Position numbers and translations under genes: made by a program. DNA of 64,000 nucleotides from Bacillota bacterium (GTDB lineage: Bacteria; Bacillota; Clostridia; Clostridiales; Caloramatoraceae), in the NCBI GenBank assembly GCA_023415335.1, contig JAEZLD010000048.1, positions 1-64,000 of the forward strand, in the 5' to 3' direction. The notes below the pieces were generated by a model. The model had not been told where the DNA came from, searched no databases, and saw nothing but the letters and a program-made list of their open reading frames with translations. Position 1 is the stretch's first letter. Each line of letters starts with the position of its first letter. Of the stretch, positions 1,177-50,527 are shown in pieces.

Positions 1177-2280
1177 TTACGCTTTCCTATTTCCCATAAG
1201 GCTCATCAGCTGGGAAAGAAGGTCTCCATTACCGCTTAGGTTAATACTCCCCACATTCTCACAGATGCGCTCCACATACTCAAGCTCCTTCAGCTTGTAT
1301 AGTGTCTGGTTCTCCTCCATAAGCCTGGCTGTGTTCAGCAGTGATCTTGTGGAAGCAACCTCCTCACGGCGGGTAATGACGTTTGCCTGTGCCCGCTTTT
1401 CAGCCACAAGCACGGTGTTCATAATGTCACGGATTTCACCGGGAAGGATAATATCCTTTACGCCGGCATCCATAATCTCCACAAACAACGCCTTTTCCTT
1501 CTCCTTCAGGCAGTCAAAAACGTATTTTGACATTTCATCCTTGTTTGAGAGAATATCATCAAGCTTATATTTGCCCACATAATCCCGCAGTGCAAGCTGG
1601 GCCGCAACGTGCATCTGCTCGGCATAGTCATCAATCTCTGTCAGTATCCTTACATAATCGGTTATGCGGTAATTGCAGACAAAATTGATTCTAAGGGATA
1701 CCTTATCCTGGGTCATAATCTCCTGTCCCGTAATATCCATCTGAGTCAGTCTTGTATCAACAAAGCTTACGTCCACCCGGATATTGTTTTTCCAAAAGTA
1801 GTACGTACCTGCATCAAGAATGCGAACCAGCCTCTGGTTGAAATACAGACGTGCCTTCTGGTACTCTGCCACCTGGACCTTTGTATAAAGCATGGAAGGC
1901 AGCTTTTCAAATATGTATTCTGGAACGTCTTCGGATACCTCTGGAGAGGATATATCTACAATTTTATATTCATGCTTATCAATAACAGACCAGAATGCAT
2001 ATTTTCCGTGTCTGAGGGCACCGGCAAACTTTCCGTTTATAAAATGCAGAGCAAGCTCCTGGTCCCCAGCCTCAACCACGGAGGTTGCCTGATGAATGCT
2101 GTTGTCTGAAAGCAGGGTGTCCAAAGCGCACCTGCCTGATGTCAAAGGATGATCCATCTGTACTATTTCAATTTCCCTGTCTCCAAAGAGACGGTATTTT
2201 CCTGCCCCAAGCAACTTAACAAATTTACCGTTCTTGAACAAAAAACCCTTCTGATTTTCATTAATGATTACCTTTTTCAT
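1177..2280 (-). CDS. SPFH/band-7 (stomatin/prohibitin-like) domain protein with an N-terminal extension
   Basis: The C-terminal half has a typical SPFH core and coiled-coil tail ('...VLVAEKRAQANVITRREEVASTRSLLNTARLMEENQ...'). It is a 367-aa ORF with coherent codon usage. Confidence 0.7.
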   Translation of the reverse strand: MKKVIINENQKGFLFKNGKFVKLLGAGKYRLFGDREIEIVQMDHPLTSGRCALDTLLSDNSIHQATSVVEAGDQELALHFINGKFAGALRHGKYAFWSVIDKHEYKIVDISSPEVSEDVPEYIFEKLPSMLYTKVQVAEYQKARLYFNQRLVRILDAGTYYFWKNNIRVDVSFVDTRLTQMDITGQEIMTQDKVSLRINFVCNYRITDYVRILTEIDDYAEQMHVAAQLALRDYVGKYKLDDILSNKDEMSKYVFDCLKEKEKALFVEIMDAGVKDIILPGEIRDIMNTVLVAEKRAQANVITRREEVASTRSLLNTARLMEENQTLYKLKELEYVERICENVGSINLSGNGDLLSQLMSLMGNRKA

Positions 2281-2801: not shown

Positions 2802-3699
2802 TTTTCTGCATTTTCAAACGTTCCTTTATCAGCTTCACAAAGTATTCCGGGCCTGCCACCTTGATGAAGGGGCCAAAGGATAGCACCCGTATAACCATTT
2901 CCGTTTCGTCGTCCCTGTTGTACCTTATCGTCATCCTATAGTGCTTATCATCAATCCGCTCAGCCTCTTTTTTAAAATGGGCAAAATGGAGCATTACACG
3001 TTCCAGGGCATTCCTCTCATCCACCAGCTCAAGGATTAAGCTTCTCATTTTTATGGGGTTAGGATTTTTATGTGGGGTGAAGCTTTTTCCCGAATACGGC
3101 TTACATGAAATAATCCTTCCAAGGTTAATTGTCTTTCCGTACCTGCAGCCAGACGTAAAAAGCCGGAACTTATCATCCTTTTCCGAATACTCCAGGTATT
3201 CAGGAAAAGCATTTAAATATGTCTGATTCCCCTTACGGTTTAATACGCTAATGCTGAGGGCATAATGATGCTCAATTGCATGGAGAATCAGCCTGAAGTT
3301 TTGGATATAATCCTCATCTGAAAAATCATCTCCATCAGCGTACTTGTCAAATATATAAATGTCCTCCGGAGTAAATAATGGCTCAACGTCGTCAGCATTT
3401 GGTAGCTCCTCGTTGAACAGCCTTATTCTTGGGTCCTGTGCTATTGCCTTTATCCACCTTTTCTGCAATGTGGTAAGTGGCATGTTTGGAGCATGCCTGA
3501 GCAGTGCACATCCATCCGGTTTTATCAGCTGCCATTTCCCTTCCTTCAGCGCAGGCTCAATAGCAAGAATACTCTCATGGAATGCATATTCTTCTATTAT
3601 CCCCCTCATCTCATTTGTCGTAAGGGGATGCTCCGCTGCCACCTTAAGGATTTTTAAAACTGTATTATAATAGGCTCCGTAGATTTCGCTGAAAATCAC
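2788..3699 (-). CDS. WYL-like domain protein (second gene of a pair)
   Basis: It carries a WYL-type motif 'KFRLFTSGCRYGKTINLGRII'. It overlaps the upstream WYL gene by 4 nt. Confidence 0.55.
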   Translation of the reverse strand: MIFSEIYGAYYNTVLKILKVAAEHPLTTNEMRGIIEEYAFHESILAIEPALKEGKWQLIKPDGCALLRHAPNMPLTTLQKRWIKAIAQDPRIRLFNEELPNADDVEPLFTPEDIYIFDKYADGDDFSDEDYIQNFRLILHAIEHHYALSISVLNRKGNQTYLNAFPEYLEYSEKDDKFRLFTSGCRYGKTINLGRIISCKPYSGKSFTPHKNPNPIKMRSLILELVDERNALERVMLHFAHFKKEAERIDDKHYRMTIRYNRDDETEMVIRVLSFGPFIKVAGPEYFVKLIKERLKMQKSCEL

Positions 3700-6818: not shown

Positions 6819-7357
6819 ATTTTACACCTTCAAGTTTTATATATCATTCATTATTATTTTTTAGAACCCCCTACCTTATAGACACGGCATTCATTACTAT
6901 AAATTTTACAGTTTTCATCTACTGCAGCCTTTTCCAGATAGATAACACCTTCGGTATTATCTTTGGAAGCCTCAGCGCCGTATACAACAGCAGCTTCCTT
7001 CTCATCCTCACCGAAAACCTTCAGAACGGTTTCCTTATTTCCTACACACTTAGTAACTAAATTTCCTCTGTGTCATGATTACACACTCCTATAAAAATAT
7101 TCCTACAAGAGCGTATGAAAAAACACACCCATGGCTGCGACAGGTGTGCTGAAATCCTTCATGCTCACCCATCGTTCAAGCCTTAGCACCTTAATCCTTG
7201 GTCAGGTTGCTGTGTGGTCAAGGAGCCTGTCTCTCGCACACTCTTTATAGGTTATTGTAGTATAGTCTTTTTAACTGTTTAAGTCTATATATGGAATTAG
7301 TATTTTTGCGTGCAATAAAGGTCAAGTATACTGCTAGCTGCTGTAACATTTTCATAA

Positions 7358-49543: not shown

Positions 49544-49597
49544 AAAGCTACCACCTTTCATGAACATATTATATCACATAAAATGGAAGGTGTTTTT

Positions 49598-50060
49598 ATG
49601 TCCTGCGAACGGCCAATATAGTTGAAAAAAAGCACTTGCTACTATCTCCCTATAAGTATTAGTAATAAGTTATATTCCGTCCTGCGGACGGAGTGATATT
49701 CTGGCCTTTAGCCATAGTGATATTGAGTTCTTCGAACTCAGTGATATTATATTCGCCTTTTTACTCTGGGCGCAGCCTAATATCACTGCGTAGCAACATC
49801 ACTGGCGAAGCCAATATATCTCGCCAACGGCGAATATAGTTGAAAAAATAGCACTTGCTACTATCTCCCTATAAGTATTAGTAATAAGTTATATTCCGTC
49901 CTGCGGACGGAGTGATATTCTGGCCTTTAGCCATTGTGATATTGAGCTCTTCGAGCTCAGTGATATTATATTCGCCTTTTTACTCTAGGCGCAGCCTAAT
50001 ATCACTGCGTAGCAATATCGCTGGCGAAGCCAATATATCTCGCCAATGGCGAATATAGTT
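49598..50060. repeat. Tandem direct repeat, ~218-bp unit x2 plus a partial third copy
   Basis: Unit starts fall at 49615, 49833 and 50052. Copies are ~96% identical. Each unit holds 5 GTGATATT/AATATCAC motifs and small palindromes. Confidence 0.75.
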
Positions 50061-50061
50061 G

Positions 50062-50098
50062 AAAAAAAAGCACTTGCTTGCGCAAGTGCTTTTTTTTC
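50062..50098. terminator. Bidirectional terminator (A8-GCACTTGC-ttgc-GCAAGTGC-T9) at the 3' end of the tRNA operon
   Basis: It is a perfect 8-bp stem flanked by A and T runs. The partial third repeat copy runs into it. Confidence 0.7.
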
Positions 50099-50101
50099 TG
50101 G

Positions 50102-50175
50102 TGGCGGCGGGGAGATTCGAACTCTCGACACTCCGGGTATGAACCGAATGCTCTGGCCAACTGAGCTACGCCGCC
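50102..50175 (-). tRNA. tRNA-Met (CAT), elongator-like
   Basis: The minus strand reads GGCGGCGTAGCTCAGTTGGCCAGAGCATTCGGTTCATACCCGGAG...CCGCCGCCA. It has one A.C mismatch in the T-stem. Confidence 0.75.
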
Positions 50176-50178
50176 ATA

Positions 50179-50254
<76 letters not shown>

Positions 50255-50266
50255 ATATTATTAAAT

Positions 50267-50356
50267 TGGTGCCGGAGACCGGGATCGAACCGGTACGGAC
50301 CTTTAGGGTCCGCAGGATTTTAAGTCCTGTGCGTCTGCCAGTTCCGCCACTCCGGC
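50267..50356 (-). tRNA. tRNA-Leu (TAA), type II
   Basis: GCCGGAGTGGCGGAACTGGCAGACGC...GGACTTAAAATCC, with a long variable arm. The 3' end is CCA. Confidence 0.85.
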
Positions 50357-50527
50357 ATCATTGACTAGCGACATTATTTATTATATAATGCTTTTTCAAA
50401 TACGTCAACATGATTTTTGAACATATTTTCAGGGATAATATGGTATTAATATCATATACCCTCCCCCTTAGCAAATATAAAATATAAAAAGGTACTTTAC
50501 CTAATGGCAAAATACCTGTAAATAGCT

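Follow-up and report, generated by a model that had tools for sequence, protein, structure and literature searches.

Directly behind a tRNA operon in a Bacillota genome (Clostridia, Caloramatoraceae; assembly GCA_023415335.1, contig JAEZLD010000048.1) lies a tandemly repeated non-coding array, and the locus raises the question of what this repeat is and in what form it acts. A preliminary description of the 64,000-nt stretch analysed here (positions 1 to 64,000 of the contig, hereafter the window) had regarded the array as either a duplicated small RNA (sRNA) or an iteron-like set of protein-binding sites. We find that it very probably comprises two copies and the stump of a third of a modular intergenic element of gut Clostridia, one half of which is the Rfam family Gut-1 (RF01706), and that the copies were duplicated by recombination or slippage between direct repeats. 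We further propose, tentatively, that the element acts as folded DNA.

A tandem array whose differences spare its stems

Tandem Repeats Finder delimited the array at 49608-50078, with a period of 219, 2.2 copies and 95% matches, and a repeat search aligned the two full units (49625-49843 and 49844-50062) at 96% identity. The two full units at ~96% identity and the partial third stand as first described, the third being a diverged stump (83% identity over 35 nt); the tandem repeat itself also stands, with its period corrected from 218 to 219.

Direct comparison of the two units detected 8 differences in 219 nt (A>T, A>T, T>C, A>G, G>A, C>T, A>G and C>T), all of them non-coding, and the number of stems broken by these changes is 0. 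Two of the eight form a pair, T>C at 49728/49947 and A>G at 49736/49955, which turns the palindrome GAGTTCttcGAACTC (49725-49739) into GAGCTCttcGAGCTC (49944-49958); the hairpin-preserving substitution reported earlier is therefore a true compensating change, and the paired bases at 49947 and 49955 are unique to this window. The other six differences fall in one loop, in one linker (two changes), at a linker-adjacent base, in the central spacer and in an A-run. The loop change, CGCCaa(c/t)GGCG, was also correctly noted and separates CGCCaacGGCG at 49822-49832 from CGCCaatGGCG at 50041-50051, and the hairpin TCCGTCCtgcGGACGGA is present in both units as claimed (49676 and 49895).

The units are built around a short word. 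The window contains 13 exact copies of GTGATATT, compared with 3.0 +/- 1.6 for shuffled sequence (0/100 shuffles reach 13), and 8 of these 13 copies lie inside the array. Each unit carries four exact copies (three on the plus strand, one on the minus strand) together with four degenerate ones (GTTATATT, AACATCAC/AATATCGC, AATATATC and AATATAG), giving eight linker positions where the preliminary description had counted five motifs. On the plus strand a terminator arm opens each unit (49625-49639 and 49842-49858; full palindrome at 50061-50098). The statement that each unit starts with the 5' half of the tRNA terminator holds in that direction; in the tRNA sense, on the minus strand, the same arm is the 3' arm with its U-tract.

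The tRNA sense is also the canonical sense of the element in the window. Read in this direction, one element of ~170 nt consists of a terminator-like hairpin (h0), four short GC-rich hairpins with GTGATATT joints (h1 to h4), an AT-rich centre and three longer hairpins with AATATCAC joints (h5 to h7). In the window h0 is a perfect 17-bp palindrome, GAAAAAAAAGCACTTGC-ttgc-GCAAGTGCTTTTTTTTC (50061-50098, both strands, 100% complementary), which starts one base after the end of a tRNA-Met, is followed by T8 on either strand and abuts the first linker of the element, making it the bidirectional intrinsic terminator of the tRNA operon. A simple terminator scan missed it because its A and T runs pair together. 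The same hairpin sequence also precedes the element in a related locus (L026).

The terminator-proximal copy (49888-50058, minus strand), delimited by Rfam Gut-1 matches and by alignment with 28 homologues, reads CTATATT-h1-GATATATT-h2-GCGATATT-h3-GTGATATT-h4 up to the centre GGCGAATAT, and continues as AATATCAC-h5-AATATCAC-h6-AATATCAC-h7-AATATAAC, h5 being the palindrome at 49944-49958. The second copy (49669-49839, minus strand), delimited in the same way, follows the same plan. Between them, on the minus strand, the junction at 49842-49887 contains a terminator arm and T-run (49842-49859) and then a 28-nt tail (49860-49887). Beyond the second copy, also on the minus strand, come a second tail (49641-49668), a second half-terminator (49625-49640) and the diverged stump of the third copy (49597-49624), which holds only the first linker, h1 and the second linker.

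The element contains Gut-1 and recurs across gut Clostridia

An Rfam scan of the window, the check that had been proposed for the array, returned one family there, RF01706 Gut-1, in four matches with E = 3e-7 to 1e-4 (541-nt search): on the plus strand at 49667-49752 (43.1 bits) and 49886-49971 (40.5 bits), and on the minus strand at 49842-49775 (33.6 bits) and 50061-49994 (33.3 bits). All four scores are under the 50-bit gathering threshold, and there are no further Gut-1 matches elsewhere in the 64-kb window. In all four the cmscan alignment spans model positions 1-77 fully and shows the plan of the model, three hairpins with GUGAAAU spacers, the corresponding word in the window being GUGAUAUU. 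The window copies are diverged, with three of the four first-half linkers degenerate and the order of h2 and h3 swapped; related loci gave matches at 51-74 bits in 15 of 18 cases, and an alignment of the window units with 28 genome copies extends over 205 columns. The locus is thus, by homology, a duplicated member of the known, uncharacterised RF01706 family.

Most matches in related loci lie on the h0-proximal half in canonical orientation, and at least one locus (L009) also matches in the second half on the other strand. Rows of the Gut-1 seed alignment, taken with their flanks, correspond to this same element, showing a tRNA 3' end, a terminator and a downstream AAUAUCAC half in the layout terminator - GUUAUAUUCGCC... 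- GCGAAUAUAAUAUCAC...; the seed sequences BAAZ01025322 and BAAZ01000095 have a tRNA or terminator upstream and a AAUAUCAC array downstream (PMC2864571, supplement). These rows match the whole element, and Rfam Gut-1 is therefore its h0-proximal half on the canonical strand. Both have three to four short hairpins that covary, with GUGAWAU(U) between them, the difference being that the Rfam model covers one half only. The original report describes Gut-1 as 'human gut only' and is silent on function, inverted half, loop code and organism (Weinberg et al. 2010, PMC2864571). Our literature searches for follow-up work on Gut-1 or for the 8-mers found nothing relevant. New with respect to the 2010 paper and its supplement are the bipartite inverted plan, the integral h0, a long-range helix, a DNA-type loop code and the host range.

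The host range was obtained by scanning one genome per species with the pattern GTGATATT-N8-30-GTGATATT-N8-30-GTGATATT; related loci were labelled L001, L009, L026 and so on. At least 120 loci were found, nearly all in metagenome-assembled genomes of gut Clostridia, with carriers among Oscillospiraceae, Acutalibacteraceae, Ruminococcus, Christensenellaceae and Lachnospiraceae. Nearly every locus has four words on one strand and then four on the opposite strand, over a span of 150-175 nt. In 80 oriented copies the common plan is h0, then CA-GTTNTATT, h1 (CGCC-loop-GGCG), A-GTGATATT-h2 (GCTTCGC or GCTACGC), A-GTGATATT-h3, A-GTGATATT-h4, a centre AGTT-N5-7-GGCGAATAN, and then AATATCAC-T-h5, AATATCAC-T-h6, AATATCAC-T-h7 and a final AATATCAC. 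The gaps between words range over 8-18 nt (14-18 at h5, 8-18 at h6, 11-18 at h7). Across bacterial families the 8-nt words are conserved and the stems drift by compensated changes.

Several variants accompany this plan. One locus (L040) carries at 1690-1830 (minus strand) a second class whose words, ATGAAAT/ATTTCAT, are those of the original Gut-1 consensus (74 bits); it has the same two-half plan and loop code and coexists in that genome with a GTGATATT-class copy at 3507-3680. A one-direction variant, found in Christensenella (L023, 6300-6540; L071, 4300-4530) and in Butyrivibrio crossotus (L062, 1800-2330), consists of a GGAATATTCC palindrome, AACT and four hairpins with AATATCAC joints, without the inverted half. 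In seven loci (L011, L038, L088, L097, L104, L105 and L108) the first linker is preceded by an h0 subtype, ggcGTGATACTc-ttaac-gGAGTATCACgcc, both arms of which contain a linker-like word. A conserved strong promoter, CTTGCN-N17-TGCTATAAT, directly follows the last linker in L012, L028, L031, L040 and L113; it occurs behind both element classes, in Acutalibacteraceae and in L031 (labelled Clostridia only), and in L028 and L113 it precedes a gene for a predicted 203-aa protein or its homologue with a hydrophobic N-terminus.

The hairpins are under selection

Thirty full elements were aligned and assessed against a structure of seven local hairpins. Of the cells in this structure 95.7% were paired, compared with 78.5% in column shuffles (0/500 shuffles reach the observed value), and pairing fell to 26-46% when the partners were slid by 1-3 columns. 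Cells changed on both sides numbered 128 against 33.9 expected, with double changes in 18 of 28 pairs, so that covariation extends well past the two pairs first seen. The two compensatory pairs in the window are the local tip of a family-wide pattern. Together with the 8 unit differences that spare every stem and the retention of the element in related strains, this bears out the view that the array is selected for structure and is not junk.

RNAalifold prefers a long-range helix in which the first linker and the 5' arm of h1 pair with the centre. Its one variable pair covaries (AU 13, UA 9, CG 7), and the helix and h1 are mutually exclusive. A covarying 11-12-bp inverted repeat brackets the first half only. 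Minimum-energy folds of 49667-50061, on either strand, instead pair the GUGAUAUU words of one half with the AAUAUCAC words of the other, giving a rod of stacked four-way junctions. This ladder is probably not the selected fold: variant linkers are uncompensated, and the first linker covaries with the centre instead.

A strand-specific loop code

Loops were read on the strand on which the linkers of the hairpin read AATATCAC. Of the triloops on that strand, 173 read C(GNA)G and 3 read C(TNC)G; among the tetraloops, 117 read C(GNNA)G (83 GNRA, 34 GNYA) and none (0) C(TNNC)G. The loop-closing pair is C-G 478 times compared with G-C 36 times, and h2 reads GCGAAGC or GCGTAGC in almost every copy. 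Within the window five of the seven hairpins per unit obey the cGNAg/cGNNAg rule. Among the ordinary terminators of the same loci, cGNAg occurred in 0 of 26 triloops.

Loops of this kind are familiar from DNA. The mini-hairpins GCGNAGC and GCGNNAGC are extraordinarily stable as DNA, nuclease-resistant and poorly bound by single-stranded DNA-binding protein, and are located at the phage G4 primase site, RSF1010 ssiA and the phage N4 promoters; they are much weaker as RNA, r(GCGAAAGC) melting at 39 degrees C, and standard prediction parameters fail to explain their stability (PMC13037366). A further report describes this stability as needing a C-G closing pair (PMC3201870).

Wobble pairs are scarce in the element, with G-T plus T-G at 47 of 3577 stem positions (1.3%) and A-C plus C-A at 35. 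Control terminators showed 3.0% wobble with a 2.3:1 strand bias. The G-U and A-C counts were considered as a means of picking the transcribed strand and were discarded, as 47 vs 35 offers no usable bias. The strand with the favoured loops is anti-canonical in the first half and canonical in the second, and in both halves runs 5' to 3' away from the centre. Because the favoured strands leave the centre both ways, an RNA explanation of the loop code calls for transcription that starts at the centre and diverges.

Copy number differs between strains

Seven contigs encode an identical 116-aa neighbour downstream of the array, a protein of the 23S_rRNA_IVP family, and their upstream regions were compared. 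The element is kept in these related strains, in one or two copies. A single-copy allele (L121) has one copy, a 29-nt tail and then the stump seen in the window (terminator arm, T-run, first linker and diverged h1). Two others (L123 and L126) have two copies with two different tails, in contrast to the two copies with the same tail in the window, and in all three strains the place of 49860-49887 is taken by a tail that differs from the one in the window. Direct repeats of ~35 nt (terminator arm, T-run, first linker and h1; 83% identical) flank the single-copy allele, so that unequal exchange or slippage explains alleles with one, two or more copies. Four contigs of this set end inside the repeat. 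Across the family, 20 of 111 elements lie at most 100 nt from a contig end compared with 1.8 expected. A metagenome scan for further alleles of this locus gave no matches.

The strain comparison also bears on the compensated pair in h5. GAGCTC..GAGCTC is present only in the terminator-proximal copy of the window, and GAGTTC..GAACTC in every other unit of all strains; both substitutions must therefore have appeared in a sequence that was otherwise almost unchanged. Either strong selection or templated correction in one step inside a DNA hairpin would fit this.

Tandem duplication is found at other loci too. In L039 (953-1816) a unit of period 413 is present in 2.1 copies and starts with the last 34 nt of a tRNA-Ala; in L062 (1893-2206, Butyrivibrio crossotus) a period of 154 is repeated 2.0 times at 100% identity. 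The L039 unit resembles an att-site duplication. A 23-nt direct repeat flanks terminator and element in L119, and one of 11 nt is present in L043. Downstream of some tRNA-following elements are tRNA T-arm-like remnants (GGTTCGAA...), which hint at duplication or insertion events that include tRNA 3' ends. Integration with an att-like duplication was rejected as a general origin, flanking direct repeats being confined to tandem arrays and L119.

Elements stand behind unrelated genes

Neighbours were surveyed in 8-kb pieces around each element. Elements are always intergenic and lie, as REP (repetitive extragenic palindromic) and BIME (bacterial interspersed mosaic element) sequences do, on the extragenic 3' side of genes. 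The upstream open reading frame (ORF) is co-directional in 54 cases vs 13 and the downstream ORF in 39 vs 24. Since the element sits behind h0, canonical transcription should mostly stop before reaching it. A tRNA lies within 400 nt of 21 of the 142 word clusters. In the 18 clusters with a tRNA within 100 nt it is upstream in the canonical sense, except in L089, and mostly 32-40 nt away.

The flanking genes are otherwise unrelated housekeeping genes (iPGM, GroEL, PPDK, PPase, HflX, Dcd, Maf, TrxB), which excludes a cis-regulator of one gene family. The sole recurrent neighbour is the IVP gene, which follows the element directly in L006, L014, L058 and the window. Identity between copies within a genome is 0.72-0.87, compared with a between-genome mean of 0.74 and 95th percentile of 0.84. 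Copies within a genome are thus no more alike than copies between genomes, indicating old, individually maintained loci with no recent burst. A search of plasmids gave no match to the element. Among viral contigs there were 109 matches, of which one or two look genuine and the rest are chance, many of them in giant-virus (GVMAG) sequences; one unannotated 'Bacteriophage sp.' contig from human faeces matched.

Folded DNA or RNA

Our preferred reading, held tentatively and short of an even chance, is that the element acts as folded single-stranded DNA and forms a gene-boundary structure in the manner of REP/BIME. The strand leaving the centre 5' to 3' in each half would present C(GNA)G and C(GNNA)G hairpins, including the near-invariant GCGNAGC, and the 7-8-nt AT-rich spacers between them could be read by a conserved host factor. 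Opening of the duplex, whether by negative supercoiling behind a promoter, by replication or by resection, would allow the hairpins to form. Placed behind terminators, the array would then constitute a gene-boundary element with a role comparable to that of REP/BIME arrays, possibly absorbing or signalling topology, or blocking DNA-tracking enzymes. An array acting at the DNA level is favoured because the loop code is of the DNA type, G-U pairs are rare and the halves are inverted. A bolder form of this reading, in which Gut-1 is half of a new chromosomal class of non-B DNA, a hyperstable cGNAg mini-hairpin array and not an RNA gene, strikes us as doubtful. We are equally hesitant about its corollary that a conserved host enzyme reads the folded DNA, whether as a boundary triggered by supercoiling or, for instance, as a signal for priming or restart on the strand running 5' to 3' out of the centre.

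Several points weigh against action as DNA. We infer hairpin formation in DNA from the loop code, and complementarity cannot assign the functional strand, cGNAg being cUNCg on the other. The GNRA loops, 83 of 117 tetraloops, are also good RNA loops, and duplex DNA would not readily extrude stems as short as 3-7 bp. The scarcity of wobble pairs is a weak argument because the palindromic h0 hairpins are equally poor in G-U pairs. Rfam curators judged Gut-1 to be an RNA, and about half of the elements contain what looks like a promoter (-35 TTGAA, 16-18 nt, TGnTATTNT). Compared with shuffles, the window unit folds strongly as RNA on its two strands (z = -9.2 and -9.6). Folding with DNA parameters is likewise strong on both (z = -9.5 and -8.2), and energy is therefore not decisive. 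Finally, the proposed role in topology or as a boundary rests on analogy.

The RNA readings, an sRNA gene and a 3'-untranslated-region RNA, together have a considerable though not an even chance of being right. According to the former, which is rather unlikely taken singly, an sRNA gene is read from the strand opposite to that of Rfam. A promoter in the second half, with a -35 TTGAAN at the start of h5 and at the centre an extended -10 TGATATTNT, would drive transcription backwards through the Gut-1 half as far as h0. The RNA would contain AAUAUCAC spacers and GNA/GNRA loops, and through the duplication the gene would be present twice. For the window this predicts plus-strand RNAs of ~120 nt and ~340 nt that start near 49976 and 49757 and have their ends near 50098. 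A promoter-like site is indeed present on the plus strand at 49942-49969 (-35 TTGAGC, 16-nt spacer, TG-extended -10 TATTAT; scan 9/12 with TG), with a twin in the other copy at 49723-49750 (plus strand). Among 80 elements the anti-canonical arrangement has TGnTATTNT in 80/80, a 16-18-nt spacer in 70/80 and a -35 TTGAAA/G in 35/80; on the canonical strand the centre reads TA(T/A/G)AAT without a -35 or TG extension. The window h0 has T-runs on both strands, the plus (reverse) strand is the one with the GNRA loops, the folding z-score of -9.2 would suit a structured RNA, and Rfam types Gut-1 as gene; sRNA.

The proposal of a duplicated small RNA agrees with this label, yet an RNA gene appears, judged from sequence, to be a poor match for the loop code, the scarcity of G-U pairs, the inversion of the halves and a location behind a terminator. 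In only 19 of 74 elements is h0 a palindromic terminator with the A and T runs needed in that direction, and good promoters show no association with an h0 that could terminate transcription from them (8/40 vs 11/34; odds ratio 0.52, p = 0.29). At -8 of the promoter, the covarying partner of the first linker would be untranscribed, and h6 and h7, upstream of the promoter, also covary, which is unexpected for an untranscribed region. An h2 stem of 2-3 bp would be marginal as RNA, and 34 of the 117 GNNA tetraloops are GNYA, outside the RNA GNRA class.

The second RNA reading, unlikely in our estimate, takes the element in the Rfam orientation as a 3'-end RNA element. Read-through RNA, from transcripts passing h0 on the left or a convergent terminator on the right, would meet hairpins with A-GUGAUAUU that serve as back-up terminators, pause sites or barriers to 3'-exonucleases, the whole acting as a direction-independent insulator. 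The location directly behind terminators and the orientation tied to the upstream gene (54 vs 13) would suit such a role, as would a first linker (GUUNUAUU) that has more U than the others and directly adjoins h0 in every element. Because the halves are inverted, RNA polymerase meets the same polarity from either side, some elements lie between two terminators (L018, L088, L097), and the orientation is the one that Rfam chose. Set against this, the loops on that strand read C(UNC)G/C(UNNC)G, which have no known advantage, and the bias of 173 vs 3 favours the other strand. As a U-tract behind a hairpin AGUGAUAUU is poor, G-U pairs are less frequent than in the real terminators of these loci, and little RNA is expected past an efficient terminator such as the window h0.

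It is quite improbable that the element is a selfish miniature mobile element (MITE, or miniature inverted-repeat transposable element, REPIN or BOX-like) that has spread and been locally amplified with no host function. Such an origin would account for dispersed, intergenic occurrence in several copies per genome, for the enrichment at contig ends, for the 11-12-bp inverted repeat around the first half, for modules that are lost, swapped or duplicated (L015, L055, L001, L039, L062) and for the two almost identical copies with different flanks in L033. It is contradicted by within-genome identity without excess over between-genome copies, by 8-nt words that are kept across families while stems drift, and by the lack of any transposase gene recurring beside elements. 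Target-site duplications were absent outside tandem arrays: 55 of 60 elements have no flanking direct repeats, the exceptions being tandem arrays and L119.

An iteron-like array of duplex-binding sites (a replication origin, partition site or operator array), the other suggestion of the preliminary description, is very improbable: a word present eight times per unit in two orientations and strongly conserved across taxa is what such an array might show, but word spacing of 8-18 nt is set by hairpin length, the sequence between words covaries as stems, the loop bias is a single-strand property, the neighbours (yabR, tRNAs, the IVP gene, a hexapeptide transferase gene and spoIIE) include no initiator or partition gene, and there is no plasmid occurrence. 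Iterons are direct repeats of ~17-22 bp, regularly spaced and adjoining an initiator gene or an origin. The likeness of the element to plasmid iterons is limited to a short word repeated in a non-coding stretch, its own words being 8 nt long, variably spaced and in two orientations, with covarying spacers and no initiator gene nearby.

Relation to known systems

The REP/BIME sequences of enterobacteria are the most plausible working analogue of the element, with BOX-type arrays of intergenic palindromes beside them. REPs are extragenic palindromes after genes, often clustered and in alternating orientation with conserved short linkers; within one genome their stems hardly vary, and different species have different stems. 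The likeness lies in extragenic palindromes behind genes. The difference is that element stems vary between copies and linkers are conserved across families, without the near-identical copies of REP.

The mini-hairpin signals of phage G4, RSF1010 (ssiA/ssiB) and the N4 virion RNA polymerase promoters share the cGNAg/cGNNAg code, h2 being GCGAAGC or GCGTAGC. RSF1010 has two ssi signals on opposite strands, as the two halves of the element are. Those signals are single phage or plasmid origin or promoter sites; the element, in contrast, is a chromosomal array of seven hairpins at many loci. Pneumococcal BOX and the Neisseria intergenic mosaic elements are likewise modular intergenic repeats with variable sub-units, stable predicted folds and gain or loss of modules. 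BOX modules, however, are conserved over 45-60 nt, whereas the element conserves only its 8-nt joints and its hairpins vary freely.

Other identities were considered and set aside. The Avd-like neighbour suggested the template and variable repeats of a diversity-generating retroelement; the unit differences are not adenine-specific and there is no reverse transcriptase among the neighbours. A CRISPR-like array is excluded by a word of 8 nt, palindromic 'spacers' and the absence of cas genes among annotated neighbours. A Chi-like or uptake word would require genome-wide enrichment, and outside the array GTGATATT occurs 5 times per 64 kb vs 3.0 expected, which shows none. A phage or plasmid origin finds no plasmid match, and the viral matches are mostly chance.

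Other features of the window

The operon terminated by h0 encodes tRNA-Leu(taa), tRNA-Met and tRNA-Met (50099-50356, minus strand; ARAGORN, and Rfam tRNA at 55-63 bits). Its promoter on the same strand combines TTGACG (starting at 50408), a 17-nt spacer and TATAAT (ending at 50380), and scored 11/12 in a promoter scan. The setting is a sporulation neighbourhood of the chromosome, in which HU, yabO (S4), yabP, yabQ, divIC and yabR (S1) come before the tRNAs and the repeat; beyond the repeat are the 23S_rRNA_IVP gene, a hexapeptide transferase gene, spoIIE and tilS.

The 116-aa IVP gene product (49543-49193, minus strand; Pfam PF05635, 93.8 bits) is an Avd-like four-helix bundle. The extended -10 of its gene, GTGATATAAT (plus-strand coordinates 49568-49577), is a linker-like octamer, and we noted this octamer as a remnant of the truncated third repeat copy. 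Elsewhere in the window a SAM riboswitch lies at 7166-7253 (minus strand; RF00162, 56.6 bits, above threshold).

Implications

Gut-1 has been in Rfam since 2010 as an uncharacterised sRNA candidate whose description refers to human-gut metagenome sequence only. The locus studied here and about 100 relatives give it named hosts, sporulating Oscillospirales and related Clostridia, and reveal it as one half of a larger bipartite inverted element that starts with a terminator-like hairpin. Copies are gained and lost between strains, and the element breaks metagenome assemblies. Its strand-specific loop code fits DNA mini-hairpins better than RNA tetraloops and so provides a testable alternative to the sRNA annotation. 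Should the DNA reading be true, the element would be a rare case in bacteria of a conserved chromosomal DNA-hairpin signal dispersed over many loci; should an RNA reading be true, the locus predicts the strand, ends and lengths of the transcript exactly.

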